Below are positions 1 to 63,922 of a stretch of 64,000 nucleotides of DNA, piece by piece. Source of the stretch: Candidatus Altiarchaeota archaeon (GTDB taxonomy: Archaea > Altiarchaeota > Altiarchaeia > IMC4 > SCGC-AAA252-I15); the NCBI GenBank assembly GCA_043800255.1, contig JAZDNF010000013.1, forward strand, positions 22,474 to 86,473. Direction: 5' to 3'. Every line of letters starts with the position of its first letter. Positions within the stretch are counted from its first letter, which is position 1. Made by a program: the position numbers and the translations under genes. A model generated the notes under the pieces. That model was not told where the DNA came from and made no database searches. It worked only from the letters and a program-made list of their open reading frames with translations.

Positions 1-1803
1 CATGTTGCCCTCTATTATGAGAACAGGCTTCGGGAAGTTCCTCACCATCTCGGAGGCCTGATTGAAAAGCCGCCTGTCGACGATAGACTGCAGAAAATCA
101 TCGACCGTCTTCCTCTCAACCGCGACCCTGTCGCTCAGGATATAGTCTGCAATCTCAAGCTGCTTCAGCTCGACAGCGCACTTTTCCCCCAACCGCTCGG
201 CAATGCGGGAATTCCTCTCCCTGACGTCGACAAAGACTTTGACCTCCACAGTACCCTTATCGTCTTTTGGGGTAAAATCCATGATACTCTGCTGTTTGGA
301 ATCGAAGCCGGTCTCCCCTGCCAAGCCTTTCACGAGATTTGACATCTTCTTCTCCTTGTGGTAGGCTGCCCACAGGTAACCCTCATCCCTAGTGCCCTTG
401 GATATCAGAACCTTCACCTCCCCAGCCTCGCTCCTCCCAGTCCTGCCCCGCCGCTGTATTGACCTGATCTCCGACGGTATGGGCTCGTAGAATACAACAA
501 GATCGACCTTCGGGATGTCCAAACCCTCCTCCGCCACAGACGTTGCGACCAGCACATCATAGAGTCCGTCCCTGAAATTCTCAAGGATTTCGACCTGCTT
601 CTTCTGAGTCATCCCCCGCTTGTAGTCCCGGGCAGCCTGGCCGACGAACTCGTGCACGCTGAGGCCGCTGTCAGCCAATGTTTTCACTATCTTCTCCACG
701 GAGTCCCTGTACTGGGTGAACACCAAAACGCGTTTGCCTTTATAATTTTGGACGATCTCGAGCAGCTTCCCGAGCTTCGGATGCTCCACGCCGGAATCCT
801 CGAGGGACTGCACATGCAGTCTCACCTTGGTGAACCTCGGATCAGACAGCAGCTTCCCAACCGCCTTAGACTTCTGCTTCGAAAGCCTCTCCAAGTAATG
901 GTGCAATGCTGACACGCCCTGCGTCTCCAAGAGCTCCAGCGCGTGGTTGACCTTCAATGCTGAGGCAACGACGGAAGCAGCCCCATAGGAGTCGGCGCCA
1001 TCAGTTATCTCCCCCCTTATTTCAGACTGGATTTTCAGCAGGATCCTCTTGTTGATTTTCTTCAGTTCTGCGCTCTCCAGGTAGCCGAGAACCTTCAGCA
1101 TCCTAACATCGTCTCTGAGTATCGACTCTAGTATCTCCTTCAGCCGCTTGAACTCCTCAGGGAGCACAACACCAACCCACTCGACCCTCGTTTCCTGGAC
1201 GTAAGGCCTCACGTCAACGTCCGTCTCAGTCTTAGCCTCAATCTGCTCGATGAACAGGTTAGCGCAGATTTCATCAATCTTCTCCTTCTGGCTGCTTGGA
1301 GACGCAGTCAACGCCAGTATCAGGGATTTGGAACGCTCACTCATGTACTTTCTTGCAATCCTCACGTATGAGTAATCGCCCGACGCCCTGTGGGCTTCGT
1401 CGAATATTATGAGGGAGTAATCCTTGAGGCTGAGGCCGCGTAGGAAGTCATTCTCTATCGTCTGCGGCGTGGCGAACACGAACTGAGCCGCCCAGTAGAG
1501 CTTCTTCCTCTGCGCTATTGGAACGGTTCCCGTGAGCAGCGCAGTGTCAGCCTCAACCAGGTTTTCGTCGAAGGTCCTCTTGTGCTGGACTGCCAACGGC
1601 TTCGTAGGGGCGAGGAACAGCACCTTATCCTGCGGGAACTCGCTTACTCTGGCGACGGCGACCAGCAACGCCACTATGGTCTTTCCCAGCCCGGTCGGCA
1701 GGACTACTAGAGTGTTCTTCTCCAGCGCATTGGAGAATATCCTCTCCTGATACTCCCTGACCTTGATCCGGTTAGGCTTCACCAGACGATGCTCAACGTA
1801 CAT
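1..1803 (-). CDS. hef: Hef-type helicase-nuclease, partial; the C-terminus runs off the window start
   Basis: The minus-strand ORF starts at ATG 1803 and stays open to position 1. It has a Walker A (LVVLPTGLGKT), a DEAH box (FDEAHRA) and helicase C motifs. It ends in an ERCC4/XPF nuclease motif (ERKTVDDF). The ORF track omits it because it is truncated. Confidence 0.8.
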   Translation of the reverse strand, partial: MYVEHRLVKPNRIKVREYQERIFSNALEKNTLVVLPTGLGKTIVALLVAVARVSEFPQDKVLFLAPTKPLAVQHKRTFDENLVEADTALLTGTVPIAQRKKLYWAAQFVFATPQTIENDFLRGLSLKDYSLIIFDEAHRASGDYSYVRIARKYMSERSKSLILALTASPSSQKEKIDEICANLFIEQIEAKTETDVDVRPYVQETRVEWVGVVLPEEFKRLKEILESILRDDVRMLKVLGYLESAELKKINKRILLKIQSEIRGEITDGADSYGAASVVASALKVNHALELLETQGVSALHHYLERLSKQKSKAVGKLLSDPRFTKVRLHVQSLEDSGVEHPKLGKLLEIVQNYKGKRVLVFTQYRDSVEKIVKTLADSGLSVHEFVGQAARDYKRGMTQKKQVEILENFRDGLYDVLVATSVAEEGLDIPKVDLVVFYEPIPSEIRSIQRRGRTGRSEAGEVKVLISKGTRDEGYLWAAYHKEKKMSNLVKGLAGETGFDSKQQSIMDFTPKDDKGTVEVKVFVDVRERNSRIAERLGEKCAVELKQLEIADYILSDRVAVERKTVDDFLQSIVDRRLFNQASEMVRNFPKPVLIIEGNM

Positions 1804-1839
1804 GGTAAGGTAATTAATAAACTGCGATAATATTATAGC

Positions 1840-2478
1840 ATGTCCTACTACATCAGGGGTAAGACGATAGCTGAAACCTGGAACAGGCTGCTGAATGTCA
1901 TATGGTATTCTGGAGAGGACATCAAAAGCCAGAGGGGGAAGACCAAAGAAATGTTGAACCTGATGTGCGAGGTCGCGAACCCGGCAGACAGGAGCATAAA
2001 AGGCTTCCCCATGGGCGAGGAAGAGCTTAAGGCGTACGCAAAACAGCTTCTGTCAAAGGACAGGAGCGGGTTCGAATACACATACGGGGAACGGCTTAGG
2101 GCTTGGGGTTCTGACATACTGGATAAGCCTGTGGACCAGCTTGACGCCATAGCGAAGACGCTGAAAAGGAGCAGAGGCACGAGGAGGGCGACGGCCGTCA
2201 CATGGATTCCGCCAATAGACTCAAAGAAGGAGGAGGTGCCGTGCCTGATTCTGGCGGACTTCAAAGTGAGGGATGGGAAGCTGAACCTCACCGCAGTGTT
2301 CAGGAGCAACGACATGTACGGCGCATGGCCTGCGAACATGTACGGTCTGAACAAGGTCAACAATTTCGTTGCAAAAAAGGTCGGAGTGAAGGCTGGCGCG
2401 ATAACGACACTTTCCATTTCAGCCCACGTCTACGAGCACGACTACGGCAACGTCAAGAAGGCGTTGAGGATTCAGTAG
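1840..2478 (+). CDS. thyA: Archaeal-type short thymidylate synthase (ThyA-like, ~210 aa)
   Basis: 212 aa. It resembles the short archaeal ThyA family (MJ0757-like) and has a conserved Cys in the PCLILADF region. Confidence 0.6.
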   Translation: MSYYIRGKTIAETWNRLLNVIWYSGEDIKSQRGKTKEMLNLMCEVANPADRSIKGFPMGEEELKAYAKQLLSKDRSGFEYTYGERLRAWGSDILDKPVDQLDAIAKTLKRSRGTRRATAVTWIPPIDSKKEEVPCLILADFKVRDGKLNLTAVFRSNDMYGAWPANMYGLNKVNNFVAKKVGVKAGAITTLSISAHVYEHDYGNVKKALRIQ

Positions 2479-31971: not shown

Positions 31972-33690
31972 ATGCGATGGTTGATTCTCCTTGTAGCGGC
32001 GGTACTGCTAGCGTCCGTATTTGCTGAGGCTTTTCCTCAACTTCCAGAGTACTATGAGAGTTATGTCACAGTCGATGGAATTTATGCATCGAATGGCACT
32101 TATGTTGAGGTTAAAGTTTACGGCACTAATGAGGTCGTGGGTAGCGCAGTAACAAATGAAGGCGGCTACTATGCCTTAACTGTTAACTTTGATGTTGTTG
32201 ATGGTAAGGGGGGCATCGACGAGGGGGCGAACGTAGGAGACCAGTTAGGTTGGTACGTTAACGGCGTTAGTGCAGATAGACCGGCACCCGGATCGGATAC
32301 TGCAGATCCAGGGAGGATAAACCATCTGTTTATCGTGAGCGTCGGGGAGACTCCCCTTAGAATAGTCGATTATGCACCATCGAATTCCACACAAAGGCTT
32401 AACAAGGGTGAGAATATCACCTTTTCTGTAATAGCCATCGGACCCTCAGAGTCGAAGCTAAAATACAATTGGACTATCGATGGAATTGAAAGAAGCACCA
32501 ATAAGAGTTTCACATACGGTTACTCTCCAGAAGTTGTCGGGACAAAGGTTATAAAGGTGCAAATCAGTGATGACTCAGGAGACACGGTTCTTAAAGAATG
32601 GAATCTAACCACCAACACGCGCCCAAGAATATCCCCTCCCATTCCAGCAATCTCGTTTAACAATTCTGCTGTAGTCACTTTCGACTTGATAGAATATGGC
32701 AAAGACAATGAAACCCCACCCGGATTTCTAGAATGGAAAGTCACAGGTGATAGGTACCATCCTCCAGCGTTTGCACACATAGGCGGTCTTAGAAAAACCC
32801 TGAAGATAATCCCCAACCTGGTTTATATCGGCGATGGAAGTTTAGCATTAACGTTAACCGACGCTGGGGGAGCCTCCGTTTCACAAAACATATCTATAGA
32901 CAAGAGCGTCTTCCGTGGCAACACGACAGTACCTCAAATCTTTACCACAACCACTATCCACCAGATAACAGAAAAACCAAGAGAGAGCATAGGGGGAAAA
33001 ATAGTTATATCCCTATTGGCTTTCTTAGTAGTGCTATCAATAATTTTCTTTATAACAAAGTCCAATCAAAAAGCGGTCATCCTCATACTAATATTGTCTT
33101 TTTCTATTGTGCTGCTCTACTGGAATGATTATAAAACAGAGACCAAACCTGTTACTGTAGAATTTGTATCACCTAAAGAACTTAACATAACAAAAGATTA
33201 TGTCCAAATGTGTAGCAATCTCTTCGGACGCTCAGAGGATATTATCGAACAGTTTAGGCTAGATGATTGTTACACCAGCATCGCTGTCTTACTGAGAGAT
33301 TCGTCAATCTGCGAGGAAATAAAGAGGATACATCTAGGATACCAATATGGATGCTATGGTACCAATGCATTATTCTCCCGAAATCCGAACATTTGTCTCA
33401 ATATCGAAAGCGACACGTCTATAGTGGACTGTCTAATTGATTATGCTGATGGATTAGTGGATCCCTCGGTATGTAATGTATTCAAAGGAGATATCGTGAA
33501 GAAGTCAATGTGTAACTATCGCCTTAAGGATGAGTCCCAATTATTTTATCCAAAACCAGAGGAGTATAAATGCCCAACATATAAGCATATAGACTGCATG
33601 CCTATTGTTCCACGTAGTCATACAAAATATTGCTACGGACCTTATCACGAGTGGCTTGAAGAAAACTGCGATATTTATTGGACCATGTAA
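31972..33690 (+). CDS. Surface/membrane protein with an extracellular beta-rich N-region, 2 TM helices and a 200-aa Cys-rich C-domain
   Basis: Signal peptide, two TM segments at about aa 340-385, and a C-terminal region with at least 14 Cys. The gene is visibly A/T-rich relative to its flanks. Confidence 0.55.
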   Translation: MRWLILLVAAVLLASVFAEAFPQLPEYYESYVTVDGIYASNGTYVEVKVYGTNEVVGSAVTNEGGYYALTVNFDVVDGKGGIDEGANVGDQLGWYVNGVSADRPAPGSDTADPGRINHLFIVSVGETPLRIVDYAPSNSTQRLNKGENITFSVIAIGPSESKLKYNWTIDGIERSTNKSFTYGYSPEVVGTKVIKVQISDDSGDTVLKEWNLTTNTRPRISPPIPAISFNNSAVVTFDLIEYGKDNETPPGFLEWKVTGDRYHPPAFAHIGGLRKTLKIIPNLVYIGDGSLALTLTDAGGASVSQNISIDKSVFRGNTTVPQIFTTTTIHQITEKPRESIGGKIVISLLAFLVVLSIIFFITKSNQKAVILILILSFSIVLLYWNDYKTETKPVTVEFVSPKELNITKDYVQMCSNLFGRSEDIIEQFRLDDCYTSIAVLLRDSSICEEIKRIHLGYQYGCYGTNALFSRNPNICLNIESDTSIVDCLIDYADGLVDPSVCNVFKGDIVKKSMCNYRLKDESQLFYPKPEEYKCPTYKHIDCMPIVPRSHTKYCYGPYHEWLEENCDIYWTM

Positions 33691-53879: not shown

Positions 53880-53978
53880 AATGGCTGCAAAAAAGAAAAA
53901 GGCCAAGAAAAAGGCTGTGAAGAGAAAGGCTAAGAAGAAAGTTAAGAGGACGGCCAAGAAGAAAAAGAGGAGGAGATA
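53880..53978 (+). CDS. Lys-rich micro-ORF (32 aa: MAAKKKKAKKKAVKRKAKKKVKRTAKKKKRRR)
   Basis: My own translation; it is below the track size cut-off. An ATG 33 nt downstream of the nog1 start is followed by poly-Lys and a T-run. Confidence 0.25.
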
Positions 53979-54056
53979 AAAAAACATCTCTTCTTTTTTT
54001 ACCCTTCTCTTTCCCGAAAATTCTTTATTTTTCAGTGCAGCATCCAATATTTTCTC

Positions 54057-55142
54057 ATGGAATCTATTGTCGCCATCTCAGACTCGCATCTCGGCTACCG
54101 CCACAGGTTCAAACTCAAGCGCCTGAAAGACTATGAGAAGGCGTTCAACGAGGCGCTCGCCAAGGCGCTCGACATCAAACCGGCTGTTATCGTCTTCTGC
54201 GGCGACCTCCTCCACCACACCAGGCCTGACCCCAAGAGCATGCGCATCCTGCTGCAGAACCTCATAAAGGCCGCTGAGAGTGCGCAAGTCGTCGTCTGCA
54301 TCGGAAACCACGAGATAGCAGGCCACCTCGGGACAGCCTATTCTCCCATGTTCTCAGACCTTCACAGGAACATCCACGTCCTGACCTCGGAGAACCCCCA
54401 CATCACGCTAACAGTCGATGGGAAGCAGATAGGCTTCCACGGCTTCCAGTACCTCAGGAGCAGGGAATCCGCGGAGGGCATGCTCGAGAGGATATCTACT
54501 CAGGTCTCCGGGAACGACTACAACATATTATGCCTGCACCAGGCCGTTGAGAAGTACCTGAACCCCCATGAGATTTCCCTCAGGGTTCTGCGGGAGGTCG
54601 CGCCAAAGTATAATCTGATCCTGTTAGGCCACGTGCACAAGCACCAGAAGGTCGGCGAAGTCTTTGACATCACCCCAACATACTATGTCGGCTCTACTGA
54701 GAGAATAAGCTTCAACGAATGGCAGAACCAGAACGGCTTCATGGTCTTCAGAGAGTATAAGTTCGGCGAACCGGATTTCGTAAGCGTGTCATCAGCTTCC
54801 ATCAAGAGGATCACAGCAGACTTGGGCGAGACAACCCCGAGCGAGATCAACAACTTCATCGACAGGAGCATAAACGATAGCAAAGGCGTCGATCTCCTGC
54901 AGATCAACATCAGTTCGAAAATGGCGGGGGACTTCTTCGACGTCAGGCAGGACTGGAGCGACTCCTACACCGACTTCACGGTATTGGACGTGAACATACA
55001 ACCTTCTGGCGCGGACAGACGAGTCGACTTCCAGAAGCTGCAGATAAACGAAGAGCTCATAAGAGAATACTTCAAGCAGACAGGCATGGAAGGGCAGAAC
55101 GAGCTCCTAGAAACCTGCATGGAGCTGTACAGCGAGATTTAA
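54057..55142 (+). CDS. Mre11/SbcD-family metallophosphoesterase nuclease
   Basis: All calcineurin-like nuclease motifs are present: I DSH (ISDSHLGY), II GDLLHH, III GNHE, IV H (LCLHQ), V GHVH. It is 361 aa. No rad50 gene is adjacent. Confidence 0.75.
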   Translation: MESIVAISDSHLGYRHRFKLKRLKDYEKAFNEALAKALDIKPAVIVFCGDLLHHTRPDPKSMRILLQNLIKAAESAQVVVCIGNHEIAGHLGTAYSPMFSDLHRNIHVLTSENPHITLTVDGKQIGFHGFQYLRSRESAEGMLERISTQVSGNDYNILCLHQAVEKYLNPHEISLRVLREVAPKYNLILLGHVHKHQKVGEVFDITPTYYVGSTERISFNEWQNQNGFMVFREYKFGEPDFVSVSSASIKRITADLGETTPSEINNFIDRSINDSKGVDLLQINISSKMAGDFFDVRQDWSDSYTDFTVLDVNIQPSGADRRVDFQKLQINEELIREYFKQTGMEGQNELLETCMELYSEI

Positions 55143-55181
55143 ACGCCGTTATTTAATTCAGAACATTGTATAGTTTATACC

Positions 55182-58100
55182 ATGTCTAAGGTCACTGAAA
55201 AGGATCTAGCAAACGAGAGGCAGAGATTAACCGACGTTCTTAGAAAAATCGCCTTGAAAGCAGACATGCCCATAAAGAAGGCCCTTGACGTAAAATACCC
55301 TGACCCTGAGGTAGGCACCCTGAACTACGCCCTCGCTAGGTCTAAAATCGTCCCGACAAAGGATGTCTGCCCCCACGAGGAGACAATCGAGGCGGCAGTT
55401 TGGAGCATACGAAATATGATGGTGAGGACGGAATCGTCTGACAAACCAATCATCGTTACAAGCAAACGCAAGAACGGCGAGACCATAAAAGATCCCAAGA
55501 CAGGGAGAACAAAGTACGTAATATTAGACGGCATGCACCGATCTGATGCTATGAAGAGAACAGGATGCGAAGACAGTCTCGTGTTTGATATCGACTATGA
55601 GAGGGAGGCTGAACTGCATGGCTGGGATGAGATAGTAGAGAAAAGCAAACAGAATTCGGGTGTGAGCATATTGAATGTGGTAAAGGATACTGTAGAGACT
55701 ATGAACAGGGATTCGGATCGAAAATTCAAAGTTGTCGAAGGCGATGACGATATTAAAACTCTTCACAAGCTGATGGATCCCAAGAGAGGGATGATTGCAT
55801 TCGGAGTAATCGATGATAAGGGCAGGTCATATAAGGTGACATACAAGGACGACTCTGAGCTTGCTCTTAAGGATATTGTCAAGGTGATGAACTTATTTGA
55901 CGAAAAACTTCGTGAGAAACTGGAGTCTGTGGATGACAACCCTAATGAGACGGTAAGGTTCTTCGGAGATGACAAGTCTGCAGACGAATTTAAGAAAAAC
56001 AAAAGTCTTGCGCTTATCACAAGGCCGAGATTCTCCAAGGAAGAGGTCGTTGAGATGGCGCTCAAGGGGGAGAAGGTTCCGATGAAGACCACGAGGCACA
56101 TATTCAAAATGCGGCCCCATATTAGAGTCCCACTGAAGCTTTTGCAGGATAAGTCAGTGCCCTATGCCGCAAAAACAAGACAACTTCACGAAGCCATGGA
56201 GAACGCCAGATATAGGTACTATCCTGAGGGTATCCTAGACTTTGCAGACATTGACGGAAAACTAGATGTTTCCGACAAGTACCTTGGCAAGGAGGAGATG
56301 GAACGTAAAAGACAGGAGCTTTTAGATGACCGCAACAGGGACTGGGCTAAAGAGTTTAAGCAAACCCATGAGTACAGGGTCGCAGGTTCCACAAAGGACG
56401 TCTACCACAGGAGCCCGGAATTCCAAGAACTCTACAAGAGCGTTGAGGGGGGGATAAAATGGCTCCTAAATCCAAAGTGGTATACAACGCAGGATAAATC
56501 CCAGGCTTTCATAATCAACGCTGAAACAACAGTAGCAATGGGGCGGGCCGCATTGTACAGCCTTAGTGAAGGAGAGAGGATTCTCCACATAGATGCAGGC
56601 ACTTTTGGAAAGAGATGGCACAATGAGATCAATAATGAATCAAAGATTAGATCAAATGTATTTGAGATCATACCAGGAACCAAGATAACAGAAGAGATCT
56701 TAGCTAATTTAAAAAAGGAGATTAAAGACGGGGGATATAGTGCCGTTACAGCCGTGCACAATGAGACATCAACTGGGATGGAGCTTCCCATAAGCACGTT
56801 CTCAAAGGTCATAAAGGAGGTCGAAAAGGAAACAGGCAGGGAGATACTATTTTTGGTAGACGCTGCAAGCTCCCTTGGAGGGATGCCAATACCTAATGTT
56901 GAGGATATAGATGTCTTGATTAGCGGCATCGAAAAATGCTTCCAATGCAACGCTGGATTATCGCTTATAGTCATGAGGTCGAGAGCGCTTGAGAAAGCTA
57001 AGAAGTCGATATTGTATAAGGGCGGGACTGGTTTCGAAAGATTGAAGGAATATGCGGACAAAAACCAGACGGTTGGGACTCCAGAATACACTCAGATTAA
57101 GCAACTCCACGAGGTACTGTGTGAGATAGGAGGGTACATATCACTTGATGGTAGATACTATCCTGGAGAGGGAGTAGAAAAAAGATATGAACGCATTAAG
57201 GACTTGGCTAGGGTAACAGAAGAGTGGGCTGAAAAGAGCGGCTTCGGCTTGTTCGCTCCGGAAGGGTTTAGATCATCAACAGTCACCACAATAACAACAG
57301 CCGGTATGAACGTCTCACCAGAGATTGTAAAAGATAGGATAAAAGCTAACTTTGGTATTGAACTTTCCCCAGGCCATAGGGAATTAAAAGAAAAGGAGCA
57401 AAAAATTGATCTGTTGAGGGTAACGCATTTTGGCGCTAAAGGATTGCCTGAGCTTGTGGATAAGGAACTTAATTTAATTTCGATTGTAGTAAAGGATGAG
57501 ATAAGGCAGAAGGCTGCCAGGGGCGAGGTTATTGGGGAAGACGCTGCCAGTAAGATAGGGAAGCTTGATGCTGGAATCAAATTCCTTATGGATCTTAGAA
57601 TACGTAGAGGGAGCAGCAACATTACGCTAAGTAGACGGCAGGAAGTAGATAATATGCGTTTTGAGAAGAAATCAGAGGCTGAAAATCTAGGGCTCAATCC
57701 AAATATTTTCTCGAGGGATGGGTGGCCGCTAGTGACAGCTGGGGTAAACTTGGACCGACTAAACGAGAAGGATAAGGAACGTATCTCCTATCATTCCGAT
57801 TTGCTGATACAATTAGGAGCGAAGACCGCCGCAATCGGGGCAGACCCGAAAGTCCTATTCGAGGAAAGTTTTCACAGGCTTGGCGAAGTCATAAGCTTGG
57901 ATAATCCAGAAAATTTTGAACTCGCCTGTGATATCGGATTAAAAGCAGTTGCTGCAGGCGTAGATCCAAACAAGATATTTACGTATGCACATGATCTCAA
58001 GGGGATCATAGACCACGATAGAGGTGGGTTGAAGACTGCCATCCATCAGTTGATTGTCATGGCGTCAAGCGTTGTCGGAAAATTTGAACTCGATGACGTG

Positions 58101-59357
58101 TATTCGGCATCTGTGATGGGAATGAGAGATCACATAAAGGATGTTGATGACCTTCAGGTGGTATGGGGCATCGTGAAAAAATCGGCTGAATCCAATTTGA
58201 ACCCAACTGATGTCTTCAAGCACATCTCTGGAGTAAGTACTGACGTCTGGAAGAAGAAAGAGTTGACAGATGTGTCGGATAGCATAATCGAATGCCATAA
58301 GATTGGGAGTCGAGTTGGAATAGACGTGCACCGACTTCTGGAGTCAGAAATAATTCCGGCAGGAATCCATAAGAGTGCGTCTGCATTATCTGAGACCTTC
58401 TCGGCGTTGTCAACAGTCTTACAATCAGAGGAGAGATACGGACTACCGCCCCGAATATTAATTGAAAATGCATTACCAGCCATGTCACACATTATAGCAA
58501 AAGACCCTGAGAAATTTGTAAAAGTTGTTAAATTAGTCGATAAATTCGGACAAGACATAAAAACCGGAGGTCATGACATAAATCGTGCCATGAGAAAGCA
58601 GGAGGGGGGCTTGCTCGGCTGTCTGGACACCGTAGGAAGTGTCGAAAATTTTAGTGAATTACTCGACCTGTATCGTCTGACGCTTGACAATGGCAAACGG
58701 CCGAAAGATTGGATTTCACACTTCTCAGAAATCAAAGAAACTCTTACAACGGAAGAAGACATGGGTAAGATACTCAAACTGGGAAATAAGGCGACAGCAG
58801 CAGGACATGACCCTGCAGGACTGTTCAAGGAGCTGTCAAAGTTAAGGAAATTCCTCTCGGATAGTAGTAGCATAGACTTATGCGTTGATTACGGCAATGC
58901 AGCGATAGAGTCGGGGAATAATCCAAGCGCATCATTTAATACAATCTTCCAGATGAGAGGAATCGCAAAAAGCGGCGACCATTTCAACAGCTTATTAGTC
59001 TCTGGGGGGGAGATGTACCGGGGGGGCATTCCCGTGGACCTTATCATGCGCTTCGGCCTAGACAAACTATCGGATATAGTGAGAGAAGCAGACGACATTA
59101 TGGACATAAACGCTGAATTGAGCGGCATATACTCCAAGGTCCATGCTGTGGGAGCCGATGCAGACGGCGTGTTCAAGGACAAATTCCAGAAGATTACGAA
59201 TTTGATTATAGATGTTGACGGCCTCCGTATGCTGAACAGGGAATTTGCTAAGAGGTCCTCACCATCAGAGATAGAGAGACTGTTCACAGATATTCGCAGA
59301 GTAAAGATGGAGTATATGGGAGTGGACAACATAAAAGACATCCTGAGGAACATCTAG
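55182..59357 (+). CDS. Giant (1391-aa) multidomain protein: ParB/Srx-like N-domain + class-V PLP aminotransferase-fold domain + C-terminal array of G-x-(D/N)-P-x-x-h-F helical repeats. No family assigned.
   Basis: ParB-like region (PIIVTSKRK...YVILDGMHRSDAMKRTG). The aminotransferase-V core runs from about aa 430 to 800. It has FIINAETTVAMGRAA, GTFGKRWHNE, VHNETSTGMELPI, a cofactor Asp (FLVDAASSLGG) and a PLP-Lys context (SGIEKCF). At least 6 repeats lie after aa 840 (GADPKVLF, GVDPNKIF, NLNPTDVF, GHDPAGLF, GNNPSASF, GADADGVF). The gene is A/T-richer than its flanks. Confidence 0.6.
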   Translation: MSKVTEKDLANERQRLTDVLRKIALKADMPIKKALDVKYPDPEVGTLNYALARSKIVPTKDVCPHEETIEAAVWSIRNMMVRTESSDKPIIVTSKRKNGETIKDPKTGRTKYVILDGMHRSDAMKRTGCEDSLVFDIDYEREAELHGWDEIVEKSKQNSGVSILNVVKDTVETMNRDSDRKFKVVEGDDDIKTLHKLMDPKRGMIAFGVIDDKGRSYKVTYKDDSELALKDIVKVMNLFDEKLREKLESVDDNPNETVRFFGDDKSADEFKKNKSLALITRPRFSKEEVVEMALKGEKVPMKTTRHIFKMRPHIRVPLKLLQDKSVPYAAKTRQLHEAMENARYRYYPEGILDFADIDGKLDVSDKYLGKEEMERKRQELLDDRNRDWAKEFKQTHEYRVAGSTKDVYHRSPEFQELYKSVEGGIKWLLNPKWYTTQDKSQAFIINAETTVAMGRAALYSLSEGERILHIDAGTFGKRWHNEINNESKIRSNVFEIIPGTKITEEILANLKKEIKDGGYSAVTAVHNETSTGMELPISTFSKVIKEVEKETGREILFLVDAASSLGGMPIPNVEDIDVLISGIEKCFQCNAGLSLIVMRSRALEKAKKSILYKGGTGFERLKEYADKNQTVGTPEYTQIKQLHEVLCEIGGYISLDGRYYPGEGVEKRYERIKDLARVTEEWAEKSGFGLFAPEGFRSSTVTTITTAGMNVSPEIVKDRIKANFGIELSPGHRELKEKEQKIDLLRVTHFGAKGLPELVDKELNLISIVVKDEIRQKAARGEVIGEDAASKIGKLDAGIKFLMDLRIRRGSSNITLSRRQEVDNMRFEKKSEAENLGLNPNIFSRDGWPLVTAGVNLDRLNEKDKERISYHSDLLIQLGAKTAAIGADPKVLFEESFHRLGEVISLDNPENFELACDIGLKAVAAGVDPNKIFTYAHDLKGIIDHDRGGLKTAIHQLIVMASSVVGKFELDDVYSASVMGMRDHIKDVDDLQVVWGIVKKSAESNLNPTDVFKHISGVSTDVWKKKELTDVSDSIIECHKIGSRVGIDVHRLLESEIIPAGIHKSASALSETFSALSTVLQSEERYGLPPRILIENALPAMSHIIAKDPEKFVKVVKLVDKFGQDIKTGGHDINRAMRKQEGGLLGCLDTVGSVENFSELLDLYRLTLDNGKRPKDWISHFSEIKETLTTEEDMGKILKLGNKATAAGHDPAGLFKELSKLRKFLSDSSSIDLCVDYGNAAIESGNNPSASFNTIFQMRGIAKSGDHFNSLLVSGGEMYRGGIPVDLIMRFGLDKLSDIVREADDIMDINAELSGIYSKVHAVGADADGVFKDKFQKITNLIIDVDGLRMLNREFAKRSSPSEIERLFTDIRRVKMEYMGVDNIKDILRNI

Positions 59358-62179
59358 AACAGGCTCTTCACAATCGGTTCCAATTTTTCTGCGCTGCCGC
59401 CTCCGATGCACATCCTATTGTTTCCGCTGTATCCGCCGCCAATCTTCTCTGAAATCTTTTTCGCGACAGCTGACGCGTCCTCCGAGCTCGAAGCGACGAT
59501 GAAGTTAGCCTTCTCTCCTGTGACGTTGAACAAGACCAGCAGCCTGCCCTCTTTTTTAACCAGTTCTTCGGCGATCTTCCTCAGCTCCTTTATGTTAGCG
59601 TCATGGACTATGTAAGCAACCCGGGAGGATTCTTTGAATTTCCTCTCTATATCTTCGACAACTTTGCCGGCATCTAACCCGCCCTGCTTCTCCTTTTCCT
59701 TGCGCAGTCTCTTCCACTCGCTGAAAAGTATTTCAGATGCTGATGCCAGGTCAGAGCTGCTGCCCAAGGTTATCTCTCCAAATTCTTTGCACTCGCGCAC
59801 GAACCTTTCTAGGGTCTCCGGCAGTTTTTCCTTCTGCACTGAGAAGACTGCCGCAGCCTTAGTCAGAGCTTCCCTGTTGAACTCCCTGTTTCTGACATCT
59901 GCCGGCAGGTTCTCCAATGATTTTTGGAACAGCTCCTCCTCAGTCCCGCTGTGCTTGTCGGAGGCTGCCCCAGCCTTGAACTCCAGCCTTACGATTCCGT
60001 CCTGTATCCTCTTCGACCTCACCAGGGTTATCCTGCCAGCCTCTTTGGTGTTGTTGAGGTGGGTTCCACCGCAGGCTTCAGCATCAACACCCTTTATTTC
60101 AACAATCCTCAGCTCTGTGCCAGGCACTGCACCGCCCTGGTACAATCTGAAGCCGTGCTTCTCCTCAGCCTCGTTCCGCTTCATTATCGAGACACGTATT
60201 GGGATGGCCTTCCCAACGAGCAGGTTAGCCTCCGTCTCTATCTTCTTCAGTTCATCGTCCGATACGCCCCTGTAGTGTGTGATGTCCAATCTTGAGATGT
60301 CAACGCTCTTGTGAGCTCCCGCCTGCCACACGTGCGGACCGAGAACCTTCCTGGCAGACACGTTCACAATGTGCGTCGCAGTATGATGCTGCGACAGCTG
60401 AGTCCTCCTGTCCCAGTCGACTTTTCCGCTGACTAGCATACCTTCCCTGAATTTTCCTGCTGAGTCCACCTTGTGCGCTATCACGTTGCCGGCCTTCTGC
60501 ACGTCCAGCACTTTCGCACTTCCGATGATGCCGTAGTCAGCCTCCTGGCCTCCGCCCTCAGGATAGAACAGTGTTCTGTCAAGGATGAGATAGTCTCCTT
60601 CAACCCCCAAGACCGTTGCGTTGAACTCCGGGCCCTCACGCTCGTAATAGAGCTGCTTGGTCTCATCGTAGTTCCCCTTCAGCTGCAGCTCCTGCTTTTT
60701 CTCCCCCTCAACTTGCTCGTGCCTTTCCTCCACCAGGCCGTAGAAGTTTTCCGGAATCCTCAGGTCAGAGTTGAACTCCTTTATCAGCTCCGGGTTGATT
60801 CCTTGGGAGTCGTAGAGTCCGACCAGCTTCTCAGGGGTGAACTTCTCCCCAGAGCCTATCATCTTGCTGACCAGAGTCTTGCACTTGCGCCTGTTCTCAT
60901 CGTACCTCTCACGCTCGACGTCTATTATCTCATGCAGGCTTCCCTTCTCCCTGAGTTCGGTGTACCATTCACCGAACTCGTTCACGTGCTTGTCCAACAC
61001 CTTGTGCAGGTCTATGCTCCAGCCGTGCTCATCCATAAGAGACCAGCATCTCCTCAGAATGCTCCTCAGGTTGTAGCCTCCTCCAACGTTGCTGGGCAGC
61101 GCACCGTCGTGTATGGCAACCAGGAGTGTTCTAGTATGGTCTGCTATCGCGTACAACGCCCTCCTCAGGTAGACCTCCTTCTTCAGCTCATCCAAGGTTA
61201 TGCCCATCTCAGTTGAGACCTGGTTCCAGACAGGGTCCAGGTTGCCTAACTCGTCGATGTCCAATAGGCCGGCGTACCTTGCGAACTGGCTCCACATCCG
61301 GTTATCGGGCTTGACTCCGGTCTCCCTGTACAGGTGTTTCATCACATCTGGGAAGACGGTGTCGTAGCTCATCGGGACTCCCTGGCTGAACCACGACCAC
61401 CTCTCGAGGCCTGCTCCCATGTCGATGACCTTCGTCTTCAATTCCCTGGATGTTCCGTCCTGGAGGACCTCGTACTGCATGTAAACCTGGTTCCCGAGCT
61501 CCAAACCCCTGGAGAAGAATTCCATGCTCGGCCCGAAGTTGCCGCCGCCTGCCCAAACGTCCTCGTGATAGAATATCTCCTCAGGCTTTATTCCCAAACC
61601 TTTGGTTAGGAACTCGTGCATCTGTTTGATGCCTTCATCCTTGAAGTAGACGTTCGGCTTCTCTGGTGTCCTGAACGTATGCTGGCCGACCATTATGAAC
61701 CCAGTATAATGCCTGCCGGTGATTCCGACAGAGTCTATGTCCGGGAACCTCAGGCAGAATTGCGGCTCCAGCACCGCATCAGCCGACGGCTCCACGAGGC
61801 CTGCGACCACGTACGGTTGGAAGTCGTTGATTCCCGCGTTAACAAAGTAGAGCTCATCATACCATCTGCACACCACAGGATACCTTTTGATTGGAACATA
61901 GTCCCACTTTTTGAAGATTTTGACGTACTCATCCCATGCGCCCTTGTAGGAGAACTTCTTCTTCGTCAGTTTTTCGCCGATGAACCTGTAGCCTCCGGAA
62001 CAGGATGGCTCGTCACAATAATCCCTTTCAACCGCAGACCAGAAGCCTCGCCCGCATTTCTTGCAGACTTTCCTCGAGAACCCAATCTCCTCAAGACTGC
62101 CTACAGGATAATACTTCTCAAAGTTCCTGTGGAATTCAGGCTTCTTCTGCCTCTTAAGCTCCTTGAAATCCCAAGCCAT
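59354..62179 (-). CDS. alaS: Alanyl-tRNA synthetase (archaeal type)
   Basis: 941 aa with the archaeal AlaRS N-terminus (KVCKKCGRGFWS zinc ribbon), a class II core, the editing HxxxH...CGGTH motif and a C-terminal DHHA1-like domain. Confidence 0.9.
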   Translation of the reverse strand: MAWDFKELKRQKKPEFHRNFEKYYPVGSLEEIGFSRKVCKKCGRGFWSAVERDYCDEPSCSGGYRFIGEKLTKKKFSYKGAWDEYVKIFKKWDYVPIKRYPVVCRWYDELYFVNAGINDFQPYVVAGLVEPSADAVLEPQFCLRFPDIDSVGITGRHYTGFIMVGQHTFRTPEKPNVYFKDEGIKQMHEFLTKGLGIKPEEIFYHEDVWAGGGNFGPSMEFFSRGLELGNQVYMQYEVLQDGTSRELKTKVIDMGAGLERWSWFSQGVPMSYDTVFPDVMKHLYRETGVKPDNRMWSQFARYAGLLDIDELGNLDPVWNQVSTEMGITLDELKKEVYLRRALYAIADHTRTLLVAIHDGALPSNVGGGYNLRSILRRCWSLMDEHGWSIDLHKVLDKHVNEFGEWYTELREKGSLHEIIDVERERYDENRRKCKTLVSKMIGSGEKFTPEKLVGLYDSQGINPELIKEFNSDLRIPENFYGLVEERHEQVEGEKKQELQLKGNYDETKQLYYEREGPEFNATVLGVEGDYLILDRTLFYPEGGGQEADYGIIGSAKVLDVQKAGNVIAHKVDSAGKFREGMLVSGKVDWDRRTQLSQHHTATHIVNVSARKVLGPHVWQAGAHKSVDISRLDITHYRGVSDDELKKIETEANLLVGKAIPIRVSIMKRNEAEEKHGFRLYQGGAVPGTELRIVEIKGVDAEACGGTHLNNTKEAGRITLVRSKRIQDGIVRLEFKAGAASDKHSGTEEELFQKSLENLPADVRNREFNREALTKAAAVFSVQKEKLPETLERFVRECKEFGEITLGSSSDLASASEILFSEWKRLRKEKEKQGGLDAGKVVEDIERKFKESSRVAYIVHDANIKELRKIAEELVKKEGRLLVLFNVTGEKANFIVASSSEDASAVAKKISEKIGGGYSGNNRMCIGGGSAEKLEPIVKSLF

Positions 62180-62240: not shown

Positions 62241-62795
62241 ATGTTTACGATGAACGTCCTATTCGCGACAGGCAACAGGCATAAGGTATCGGAGGCTAAT
62301 CGTGTTGGGAAAGAATACGGTGTAAAGTTTGTCAGAGTTTCCTGCCCGTACCCTGAGATAAGGGACGAGTCCCTGGAGAGGATAGCGTCGGAGGGCGTCA
62401 AGCATGTCTACTCCCGGCTCAAGAAGCCTGTCATCGTGGAGGACTCAGGCCTCTTCCTGAAAGCCTACGATGGATTCCCATCCCCCTATTCAGCCTACGT
62501 GTTCGAGAAGATAGGCAATGGAGGGATGCTGAAGCTCGTGAGGGGAAAGAGGAACAGGAATGCGGCCTTCAAATCCGTAATAGCCTACTATGACGGCAAA
62601 AAACTTAGAACATTCACTGGAGAGGTTAAAGGCAGGATCGCCTTGAAAAAATCCGGGAACGCAGGCTTCGGCTACGACCCCATATTCATACCAAAAGGCC
62701 ACAGCAGGACCTTCGCCCAGGACCCAGAACTGAAGGAGAAGATTTCGCACAGGAGCAGAGCCTTCAAGAAGCTGATAACGTGGCTGAAGGATTAA
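62241..62795 (+). CDS. Non-canonical purine NTP pyrophosphatase (Ham1/ITPase)
   Basis: Ham1 motifs (TGNRHK, VIVEDSGLF, FGYDPIF). Confidence 0.8.
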   Translation: MFTMNVLFATGNRHKVSEANRVGKEYGVKFVRVSCPYPEIRDESLERIASEGVKHVYSRLKKPVIVEDSGLFLKAYDGFPSPYSAYVFEKIGNGGMLKLVRGKRNRNAAFKSVIAYYDGKKLRTFTGEVKGRIALKKSGNAGFGYDPIFIPKGHSRTFAQDPELKEKISHRSRAFKKLITWLKD

Positions 62796-63922
62796 ACCTG
62801 TTCTGCGCCTATCGGCAATGATGTGTCCCCGAACTGTATTATCTGGACGTTCACTGTGATATTATCCCCCTCTGAAGCGTTAGGAAAGAGGAACGCGTTC
62901 ATCTCATTGTCCAGTCTGATAATCTTCCCGTCAAGCACCAGCCCGCTCGGTGTTGAGACCGTGCCCTCGCGCCTGATGAACGGGTTCGTAATACCATTAG
63001 CCTGGAGGAGCTCCTCCACCCGCTCTCCTGTGCCGTTCAACAGCAAGTTTACTGTCCCGTTCACTATTGAATAGTTCGCCTTCATCTTGTCCAATCTTGA
63101 TTTAAGGCCTTTGAAGTCGTCTGAGGACAGGAGAACAGCCTCGCCTTTTAGGGTAACGTTTGCTCCCTCGTTGGAGAGTTTCTCCAGGGTGCCGTTATCC
63201 AGGCCATATGAGGAGAAGCTGGGCTGCGCGAGGGTGTGATTTTCCACGCCCAACTCTTCTATCAGGCTGCCGAGTTCCAGCGGCCGGTCAAAGGATGCGA
63301 AAACCCTCATGCGTCCGGCATCCAGCACCTGGGCGTCGAATTCCGAGCCAGCCGAAAGCTTCGCAGTCTCAAGGCCTATCAACTCTTCAGGAATGTTGTC
63401 AACGACCTTCTGGAACAATATGATGGCAAGGTTGTCGCCGATCTCAAGGCCGGTCTCGCCCACAACGTATACGCTGTCCTTCCCGACCTTCCCCACGTAG
63501 GCTCTGTGAAGCGTGTACTTCCCCAACTCAGACCTGGCCAGCCGCTCTATCGCGGGCAATGCCGCGGTCAGGTTGTTTACCTCGAATTTGACCATCAGGT
63601 AGGCGTCCGACAGTTCGATTCTGACTTCGCTTACGCCGTCAATTGCGGATTCCTGTATGTTCAGGAGGTTTTCCCTCTGGAGGAAGTCAGACCTCGCTGG
63701 CATCAGGACGTACTCGTCAGTCTTGCCGGTTATGACCGCCAGTATGGTCTCGTTGCCTGCGACCACGACAGAATACTGGTCCAAGTTCAGTTCAGCCTCC
63801 TCAGGCTGCTCATAGTCTGTGGTGTTCGTGAACACGAAAAACGCTGAGAACAGCATCACAACGATTATCAGGTATATCATGCCCCGGTTCTCCTTCCCGG
63901 TCTTCTTCCCGCCCTTTTTCAT
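62792..63922 (-). CDS. Membrane-anchored extracellular protein, hypothetical
   Basis: Basic N-terminus plus a single TM anchor, then a beta-rich region with several N-x-T/S sequons (NETI, NLTA, NHTL, NGTL, NVTL). Confidence 0.45.
   Translation of the reverse strand: MKKGGKKTGKENRGMIYLIIVVMLFSAFFVFTNTTDYEQPEEAELNLDQYSVVVAGNETILAVITGKTDEYVLMPARSDFLQRENLLNIQESAIDGVSEVRIELSDAYLMVKFEVNNLTAALPAIERLARSELGKYTLHRAYVGKVGKDSVYVVGETGLEIGDNLAIILFQKVVDNIPEELIGLETAKLSAGSEFDAQVLDAGRMRVFASFDRPLELGSLIEELGVENHTLAQPSFSSYGLDNGTLEKLSNEGANVTLKGEAVLLSSDDFKGLKSRLDKMKANYSIVNGTVNLLLNGTGERVEELLQANGITNPFIRREGTVSTPSGLVLDGKIIRLDNEMNAFLFPNASEGDNITVNVQIIQFGDTSLPIGAEQV

Follow-up and report, generated by a model that had tools for sequence, protein, structure and literature searches.

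A 64,000-nt stretch of the genome of Candidatus Altiarchaeota archaeon (GCA_043800255.1, contig JAZDNF010000013.1, positions 22,474-86,473 of the forward strand), referred to here in its full length as the window, carries a giant gene directly downstream of an mre11-like nuclease gene. The product of this gene joins, in a single polypeptide, a region of the free-serine-kinase (SerK/SbnI) type, a class-V pyridoxal phosphate (PLP)-dependent aminotransferase and a long array of degenerate helical repeats. Such a fusion is rare and previously undescribed, built as it is from known kinds of enzyme and an orphan repeat. On balance, it is suggested that the giant protein is a laterally acquired bifunctional enzyme that links serine, O-phosphoserine and 3-phosphohydroxypyruvate, that carries a solenoid for docking and that has no tie to Mre11. 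The initial annotation had placed the gene in the position of Rad50, as part of an acquired module that co-opts the Mre11-type nuclease and might act in defence or, by analogy with DndA and DndB, in DNA modification.

In the scheme proposed here, the kinase domain would phosphorylate free L-serine to O-phospho-L-serine, with ADP, ATP or CTP as candidate donors, and the fused aminotransferase would convert O-phosphoserine and a 2-oxo acid to 3-phosphohydroxypyruvate, or catalyse the reverse, which would place two consecutive steps of the SerK-dependent serine assimilation of Thermococcus in one polypeptide; the helical-repeat tail would then be a docking, oligomerisation or regulatory scaffold. 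In Thermococcus kodakarensis, serine is phosphorylated by SerK, which has been shown to be specific for free serine, O-phosphoserine is converted to 3-phosphohydroxypyruvate by the aminotransferase TK1548, and 3-phosphoglycerate is then reached via SerA (PMC5120207). In the Desulfurococcales, serK clusters with genes for an aminotransferase and phosphoglycerate dehydrogenase (PGDH), an arrangement read as serine assimilation via O-phosphoserine (PMC5120207). The specific chemistry, in which serine would pass by way of O-phosphoserine to 3-phosphohydroxypyruvate within the one protein, is put forward more tentatively than the general reading, as something close to an even question, by analogy with this pathway.

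Three domains in one polypeptide

The N-terminal region had been described as a ParB/sulfiredoxin-like domain, and the YVILDGMHR motif on which that description relied is present, but the fold can be assigned more specifically. The NCBIfam model for ADP-dependent L-serine kinase (NF053625) matches at E 1.3e-7 over aa 60-319, with the SbnI model matching more weakly, and a profile built from three homologues retrieves only free serine kinases from the PDB (1vk1, 5x0b-k and 5uje; E 1e-8 to 6e-7). For the structural comparison, an alignment of 70 sequences was built and aa 1-400 were modelled with AlphaFold2 (mean predicted local distance difference test score, pLDDT, of 85). Among PDB structures, the nine that Foldseek ranks highest against this model are without exception SerK or SbnI and span both domains (E 2e-15 to 6e-14, 274-306 aligned columns, target-normalised template modelling score 0.71-0.77, 14-21% identity), whereas ParB, Noc and sulfiredoxin match just the N-domain of ~90 residues, at E >= 2e-3. 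The score on NF053625 is 31 bits against an equivalog cut-off of 380, which indicates a distant sub-family rather than a SerK orthologue.

The residues expected of a free serine kinase are retained. E66 of a PHE motif aligns with the LHE glutamate of SbnI, D116-G-M-H-R aligns with IDGVHR of the same protein, and PMKTTRH at 300-306 aligns with SPKTTRH of 5x0b and 1vk1, the KTTRH being identical to that of Thermococcus SerK. All of E66, D116-G-M-H-R and K302-T-T-R-H are invariant in eight aligned fusion sequences. Across the 70 relatives, D116, G117 and R120 are invariant, H65 is nearly so, and conservation reaches at least 90% at E66, H119, K302, T304, R305 and H306, with T303 in neither of these conservation lists. 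The titles of PDB entries for SerK name E30A and E30Q mutants, which marks E30 as a residue altered in studies of mechanism, and we take E20 of SbnI to be the catalytic Glu of the (P/L)HE motif and the counterpart of SerK E30. Given the agreement of profile, model and motif, it is almost certain that the region is a SerK/SbnI-type free serine kinase with two domains, beyond a generic ParB domain.

Stand-alone members of the same sub-family, of ~284 aa, are widespread in Hadarchaeota, Bathyarchaeia and Asgard archaea and occur in some bacteria. In three Hadarchaeum loci (L033-L035, 4925-8051), radA is immediately followed by a free-standing SerK-like gene whose product has 284 aa. This gene overlaps one for cofactor-independent phosphoglycerate mutase in two of the loci and is separated from it by 44 nt in L034. 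The overlap hints that the sub-family acts in C3 phospho-acid metabolism.

The central domain scores 31.5 bits on Pfam Aminotran_5 (PF00266), for which the cut-off is 21.5. When seven fusions are combined in a profile, the best PDB match is 2dr1, which is PH1308 of Pyrococcus horikoshii (E 1.2e-40), followed by serine-pyruvate, AGXT, PhnW (2-aminoethylphosphonate) and SerC aminotransferases; there is no cysteine desulfurase among 37 PDB relatives of the domain. K585 aligns with the Lys of SSSQK in 2dr1, which forms the Schiff base, D560 with the Asp of FVDAVS, which contacts the pyridine nitrogen, and R746 with the carboxylate-binding Arg of FRIGHMG, part of an R-x-x-H-x-G motif. The retention of the cofactor Asp and Lys, and the transaminase rather than desulfurase character of the site, had been read correctly from the sequence at the outset. 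Among the fusions, H409/R410, NETSTG at 527-532, D560, K585, H732/R733 and R746 are invariant, and it is close to certain that the domain is a class-V aminotransferase of the AGXT/phosphoserine type with an intact transaminase-type PLP site.

Two His-Arg pairs are among the invariant residues. The H409-R410-S motif is common to SerC (3ffr) and 2dr1, whereas alanine-glyoxylate aminotransferases have HM or HT at this point, and the second pair (GHR, 732-733) stands where 2dr1 has GYG. The phosphate pocket of Escherichia coli SerC is presumably formed by His41, Arg42, His328 and Arg329, and H732-R733 may correspond to H328/R329. Together, the two pairs may line a cationic pocket suited to a negatively charged side chain, phosphate for instance. 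On the SerC equivalog models the domain scores 18 bits (TIGR01364, cut-off 444) and 33 bits (TIGR01366, cut-off 402), and the scores on the curated models of SerC, PhnW and BhcA are all far below their equivalog cut-offs.

The C-terminal region had been noted as an unfamiliar repeat with a G-x-(D/N)-P-x-x-h-F core in at least six copies, and this description holds: the strict pattern [GN]x[DN]Px(2,3)F occurs six times in the last 561 aa, where 2000 shuffles give an expectation of 0.02, and a looser form of it recurs twelve times at intervals of ~40 aa, with one gap of ~80 aa. One half of the region matches the other with 22.3 bits by phmmer, where 500 shuffles reach a maximum of 5.9. When each unit is left out in turn, just 4 of 11 are individually significant, which suggests an old and degenerate array, and no tandem repeats are found at the DNA level in the region. 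No Pfam family, HEAT, ARM, TPR, ANK and Sel1 included, matches aa 801-1391 at E <= 10. The single-sequence AlphaFold2 model of the region is all helix with a pLDDT of 46 and is usable for secondary structure only; Foldseek finds nothing below E 0.08 with it, and both Foldseek and a sequence-profile search of the PDB return designed helical-repeat proteins (in the profile search with a turn of the 'GLDPDAI' type), the latter along with noise. It is therefore very nearly certain, on motif spacing and predicted helicity, that the region is an alpha-solenoid of a practically orphan family.

The homologue search on the repeat that had been proposed with the initial annotation, made here with phmmer against the full set of 1.84 billion representative proteins, gives one relative only, P0004 (E 7.9e-14, 22% identity). 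A hidden Markov model (HMM) of P0004's own 37-aa repeats does not detect those of the giant protein, so that the relationship is carried solely by the phmmer hit. P0004 (L038, 8001-13862) is itself a giant archaeal protein, of 1953 aa, with ~25 very regular repeats of 37-41 aa ('LIELSNKCVENKIDPxxVL') and a C-terminal non-repeat portion of ~700 aa without a Pfam match; its gene adjoins those for ribosomal S6e and eIF2-gamma.

A compositionally foreign gene in a housekeeping stretch

The layout of the locus is given in Table 1. The ORF (open reading frame) coordinates, the 39-nt gap between mre11 and the giant gene on the same strand and the 4-nt overlap of the 3' ends of the giant gene and the convergent alaS are all as first described. 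NCBI annotates the product as an 'aminotransferase class V-fold PLP-dependent enzyme' in a cluster of size 1, that is, a singleton.

Table 1. Features of the giant-gene locus and its immediate neighbours, with positions counted from the first letter of the window
Feature	Position	Strand	Description
mre11	54057..55142	+	361 aa; native Mre11/SbcD-family nuclease gene; upstream neighbour, outside the feature
A/T-rich box TTATTTAA	55149..55156	+	26-33 nt 5' of the giant gene ATG; possible TATA-type promoter element
Giant gene, complete ORF	55182..59357	+	1391 aa; identical to NCBI MFH0861059.1
SerK/SbnI-like region, aa ~45-360	55314..56261	+	Predicted ParB/Srx-like N-domain, SerK C-domain and family-specific RxYPE extension
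Class-V PLP aminotransferase domain, aa ~399-790	56376..57551	+	Predicted AGXT / phosphoserine aminotransferase / PhnW subgroup
Helical-repeat region, aa ~821-1391	57642..59354	+	~12 degenerate repeats of ~40 aa with a G-x-(D/N)-P-x-x-h-F turn
alaS	59354..62179	-	Native convergent downstream neighbour; GC3 0.70

With a G+C content of 45.1% and a G+C content at third codon positions (GC3) of 0.498, the giant gene lies 2.6 standard deviations below the mean of the window's other genes (0.667±0.065), which agrees with the early impression that it is richer in A/T than its neighbours. GC3 is low in all three parts (0.56 in the kinase, 0.46 in the aminotransferase and 0.49 in the repeats), and hence the low value of the gene is no artefact of repeat composition. 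The mre11 gene, with a GC3 of 0.76, is native. The best reading of these values is that the giant gene is compositionally foreign and was probably acquired laterally. The box upstream of its start codon resembles the A/T boxes which, at similar distances, precede the first-in-operon genes of the window and are lacking before internal operon genes, so that the giant gene may have a promoter of its own; this suggests that it would be transcribed independently of mre11.

The annotation of the window covered roughly 37-64 kb and 17 genes, and describes an ordinary housekeeping chromosome: family searches identified CDC48, TruD, a class-I aminoacyl-tRNA synthetase, EPSP synthase, MDH, a LarA-like protein, chorismate synthase, Lrp, Nog1 and mre11, and GlnA, PII, Amt and AlaRS were identified by eye. 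No PGDH gene is among the genes annotated at 39-64 kb. Neither rad50 nor radB occurs elsewhere in the window, where the only ORF longer than 600 aa apart from the giant gene and alaS is one of 720 aa, which is CDC48.

The Mre11 protein contains all five Mre11/SbcD phosphoesterase motifs, as had been stated for it (DSHLG at 9, GDLLH at 49, GNHE at 83, LHQ at 160 and GHVH at 191); it matches Pfam Metallophos, scores 62 bits on the NCBIfam equivalog models for archaeal Mre11, below the cut-off of 500, and has M. jannaschii Mre11 as its closest solved relative (PDB 3av0, E 4.7e-23, aligned over 5-347). Orthologues of 49-54% identity are found in ten Altiarchaeota loci (L003-L012), of which six have nog1 divergent upstream and four have alaS convergent downstream. 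The alaS orthologues are 58-60% identical in L005, L007 and L009, where the gene is complete, and that of L008 is partial, with 47% identity over 273 aa. Nine of the ten loci extend downstream of mre11, and radB is the conserved gene that comes next in every one of these. Eight of them have it immediately after mre11, with gaps of -34 to +95 nt, and in the ninth the two genes are 1.26 kb apart. The RadB of L005 scores 223 bits on TIGR02237 (cut-off 172), and the other radB products are 50-76% identical to it.

No Rad50 gene follows mre11 in any of the nine related loci. Given that radB follows instead, the absence of an adjacent Rad50 is a trait of the lineage and not of this locus, and the expectation of an mre11-rad50 operon must be corrected to the mre11-radB operon that is conserved in Altiarchaeota. 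The initial annotation was right that the giant gene is not Rad50, since it has no Walker A motif, its sole CxxC (CFQC, aa 586) lies inside the aminotransferase domain and its N-terminal region has the SerK fold, but its view of the gene as standing in the place of Rad50 is not supported. No part of the giant protein is encoded in the related Altiarchaeota mre11 loci examined, and none of these carries a relative of the giant gene after mre11, the absence from close relatives for which a check had been proposed. The best reading of the arrangement is that the giant gene is a single foreign insertion in an Altiarchaeota housekeeping stretch, where it occupies the position that radB has in relatives.

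Several further observations concern the surroundings. The mre11-radB pair of Altiarchaeota is conserved and its members often overlap (for example, L008 10001-11742), and the interval between radB and alaS varies, with a methyltransferase-like ORF in L007 and a 601-aa DEAD/Hef-like helicase in L009. A homologue of this helicase (37% identity over 511 aa) is encoded at 304-1758 (-) of the window, ~52 kb from mre11, which indicates rearrangement around the locus. Between nog1 and mre11, at 53881-53979 (+), lies a 32-codon ORF for an extremely basic peptide, MAAKKKKAKKKAVKRKAKKKVKRTAKKKKRRR, with a T-rich stretch after it; the ORF is not kept in the nog1-mre11 spacer of the ten related loci and so may be spurious or lineage-specific. 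A 572-aa ORF at 31972-33690 (+) has the lowest GC3 of the window (0.41 vs 0.67) and no Pfam, NCBIfam or PADLOC match, and is a second compositionally foreign orphan. A 376-aa ORF at 62792-63922 (-) has an N-terminal hydrophobic segment and no Pfam match, and L003 and L004 hold weak homologues of it (25% identity), at most ~2 kb away from the same ITPase-like gene.

Relatives of the fusion and the readings of its function

About ten shorter fusions of a SerK-like domain and an aminotransferase were found in metagenomes. They are 747-826 aa long where complete, lack the solenoid, which is absent from every fusion homologue other than the giant protein, and share 30-37% identity with it; they fall into two clades, with ~41% identity between the two. 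Searching a third time for homologues, with a profile of the full fusion, brought up nothing new; word matches to aminotransferases dominated the output. That the domain combination is new to characterised families, as had been supposed, is borne out in that no characterised-family model in Pfam, NCBIfam or PADLOC covers it, and no fusion of a SerK/ParB-fold domain and an aminotransferase was found in the full-text literature or in a 2025 survey of ParB-CTPase-fold fusions and its supplements.

The bacterial fusions recur in two kinds of neighbourhood. In three loci that span both clades (L018 177-12223, L001 43-9347 and L016 3600-10269), the fusion gene is the last or second-to-last of a co-directional cluster. 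Each cluster encodes a phosphatase of the PPP or PP2C-like kind, a Ser/Thr kinase, which carries an FHA domain in two of the loci, and either one or two vWA proteins; a small Zn-ribbon protein is present in two loci, and a CHAT-TPR protein, a bacterial PH domain or a ClpB-like ATPase in some. In the second context (L013 364-7380 and L002 4167-14908), the fusion is accompanied by a TraG/VirD4-type coupling ATPase, a conserved protein of ~290 aa and a RyR-domain protein. None of these partner genes, of either kind, is present in the window. L002 also encodes an HSP90-like ATPase and a 500-aa protein with deformylase, spermine-synthase and SEC-C domains, and a 108-aa ORF at 1793-2119 (+) duplicates the N-terminus of the fusion encoded 8 kb downstream; this ORF is 57% identical to the clade-B fusions of L015 and L016 and is a truncated paralogue or pseudogene fragment. 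None of the ~10 fusion homologues has an Mre11 gene beside it, and no mre11 orthologue elsewhere has a homologue of the giant gene as its neighbour. The Metallophos genes of L001 and L018 were considered as possible Mre11 genes and rejected, being unrelated to the window's Mre11 by BLASTP (E >= 0.05); the L001 protein matches ApaH/protein-phosphatase models and the L018 copy matches none.

A number of points weigh against the reading of the giant protein as an enzyme of serine and phosphoserine metabolism. The enzymatic roles of the fusion family are read from sequence, and the phosphate-pocket argument leans in part on analogy with residues of E. coli SerC. The scores on the SerK, SerC, PhnW and BhcA models are all far below the equivalog cut-offs, which means that the giant protein is no orthologue of any characterised enzyme and that its substrates could differ. 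A SerK-like protein has been reported to bind CTP and not ATP (PMC12704722), and PH1308 and TK1548 are known by annotation only, as serine or serine-glyoxylate aminotransferases, in an inventory of class-IV/V enzymes (PMC9986279); PH1308 is presumably the P. horikoshii counterpart of TK1548, judging from the annotation table of the same inventory. The recurrence of the bacterial fusions among vWA, kinase-FHA and phosphatase genes, with or without CHAT-TPR, or beside TraG/VirD4 and RyR genes, would be odd for a plain serine-catabolic enzyme. Furthermore, an orphan solenoid of 570 aa and the singleton status of the protein, with no homologue in public data above about 37% identity, are not expected of a housekeeping enzyme.

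The main rival is one in which the fusion is the effector of a conflict or stress system, an enzymatic output that depletes serine or makes a toxic or signalling phospho-metabolite, and in which the helical tail of the archaeal protein replaces the separate vWA, kinase and phosphatase sensor genes of bacteria. The position of the fusion at the end of the vWA clusters in both clades, its pairing with TraG/VirD4-like and RyR-domain proteins in L013 and L002, its patchy and rare distribution and the foreign composition of the archaeal copy would all suit such an effector, and the bacterial neighbourhoods keep a defence or conflict role among the readings to be weighed. Nevertheless, the association is seen just for homologues at 32-36% identity, the window has housekeeping genes in place of those partners, and no toxic-effector domain can be recognised, both enzymatic domains appearing ordinary, intact and metabolic. 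Nor is this a known defence system, as had been entertained, given that no PADLOC 2.0 family matches the giant protein at E <= 0.01. The effector explanation is considered unlikely, though not negligible. More doubtful still is a bolder form of it, in which the fusion would be a new class of metabolic effector, the output of both TerY-P-like and TraG/RyR clusters, which upon activation would rewire or drain the serine/phosphoserine pool or yield a phospho-keto-acid signal, the archaeal version being self-contained with its solenoid as sensor or docking element. A different order of reactions, in which the aminotransferase would turn unphosphorylated serine into hydroxypyruvate and the SerK-like domain would phosphorylate a different C3 hydroxy-acid, for example glycerate, so that phosphoglycerate would enter glycolysis, has in its favour that the nearest solved PLP relatives are annotated as serine, serine-pyruvate or alanine-glyoxylate aminotransferases, that the stand-alone SerK-like gene of Hadarchaeum overlaps that for phosphoglycerate mutase and that the SerK-like domain scores so low on the SerK equivalog model. 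However, the domain shares its KTTRH motif and its catalytic Glu and Asp, without change, with enzymes shown to be specific for free serine (PMC5120207), the invariant His-Arg pairs of the aminotransferase domain suggest a substrate with an anionic side chain, and a reductase would be needed between the two steps, so that these would not be consecutive and the usual reason for a fusion would be gone; this order is held to be improbable.

There remains the model from which the initial annotation set out, in which the giant protein stands in for Rad50 as a partner of Mre11 in repair, in a Dnd-like modification system or in a defence module. The two genes lie on the same strand 39 nt apart with no obvious oligo-T terminator between them, and the pairing of a ParB fold with a class-V PLP domain superficially recalls DndB and DndA. 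Against this, mre11 is native and the giant gene is foreign (GC3 0.76 and 0.50), radB and never the giant gene follows mre11 in the nine relatives, and the check for a recurrent Mre11-like partner beside the ~10 fusion homologues found none. The N-terminal region is a complete SerK fold and neither DndB nor a DNA-binding ParB, the PLP domain has its relatives among transaminases of the AGXT, phosphoserine and phosphonate kinds, Walker A, coiled coil and zinc hook are all missing, and a promoter-like box precedes the giant gene. Of the acquired module that was proposed to co-opt Mre11, what stands is that the giant gene is foreign in composition; the co-option does not, and the analogy with DndA and DndB is not supported either. 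It is hardly credible that the giant protein is a partner of Mre11, and we are confident that the adjacency is positional only, the giant protein neither replacing Rad50 nor showing any sign of cooperation with the nuclease. The reading in which the giant protein is a bifunctional enzyme of serine and phosphoserine metabolism, acquired independently of Mre11, is therefore the one preferred here.

Significance and comparison with known systems

Free serine kinases have been known only since 2016, and the characterised ones, such as Thermococcus SerK and Staphylococcus SbnI, are few. A natural fusion of such a kinase and an aminotransferase would be direct genomic evidence for the route already proposed from serine by way of O-phosphoserine to 3-phosphohydroxypyruvate, and would give a handle on substrate channelling. 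The bacterial contexts, with vWA, kinase and phosphatase or with TraG and RyR, hint at a regulated and possibly defensive phosphoserine chemistry, and the C-terminal solenoid is a new repeat family essentially without relatives.

The kinase region shares with SerK (T. kodakarensis TK0378, 5x0b-5x0k; P. furiosus 1vk1) and SbnI (5uje, 5ujd, 6nr6) the two-domain fold and the (P/L)HE, DGxHR and KTTRH motifs, and differs from them in belonging to a longer sub-family with an extra RxYPE segment and in being fused. With PH1308, TK1548, SerC and PhnW, the aminotransferase domain has in common fold type I of class V, the PLP Lys and Asp, the NETSTG loop and the carboxylate Arg; unlike those proteins it falls below every equivalog threshold, has GHR for GYG and is not free-standing. 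The repeats resemble designed and natural alpha-solenoids, such as designed helical repeats (DHR) and HEAT/ARM-like proteins, in their helix-turn-helix units of ~40 aa and their G-x-D-P turn, yet match no Pfam repeat family and no natural structure.

At the level of systems, the upstream gene is a genuine member of the Mre11 family, its product aligning into the C-terminal region of M. jannaschii Mre11, whereas the giant protein differs from the Rad50 of archaeal Mre11-Rad50 in having no ABC-ATPase motifs, coiled coil or zinc hook, and from the Dnd system of DndA and DndB in having neither a desulfurase nor a DndB-type domain. The vWA protein, Ser/Thr kinase and phosphatase that recur beside bacterial fusions are reportedly, after Anantharaman, Iyer and Aravind in 2012, the components of TerY-P-like triads; fusion homologues end such clusters, and the window is without such genes. 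The closest parallel in metabolism is that of the Desulfurococcales, where the gene for a SerK-family kinase is clustered with those for an aminotransferase and PGDH (PMC5120207): there the genes are separate, whereas here kinase and aminotransferase form one polypeptide, with the kinase drawn from another sub-family.

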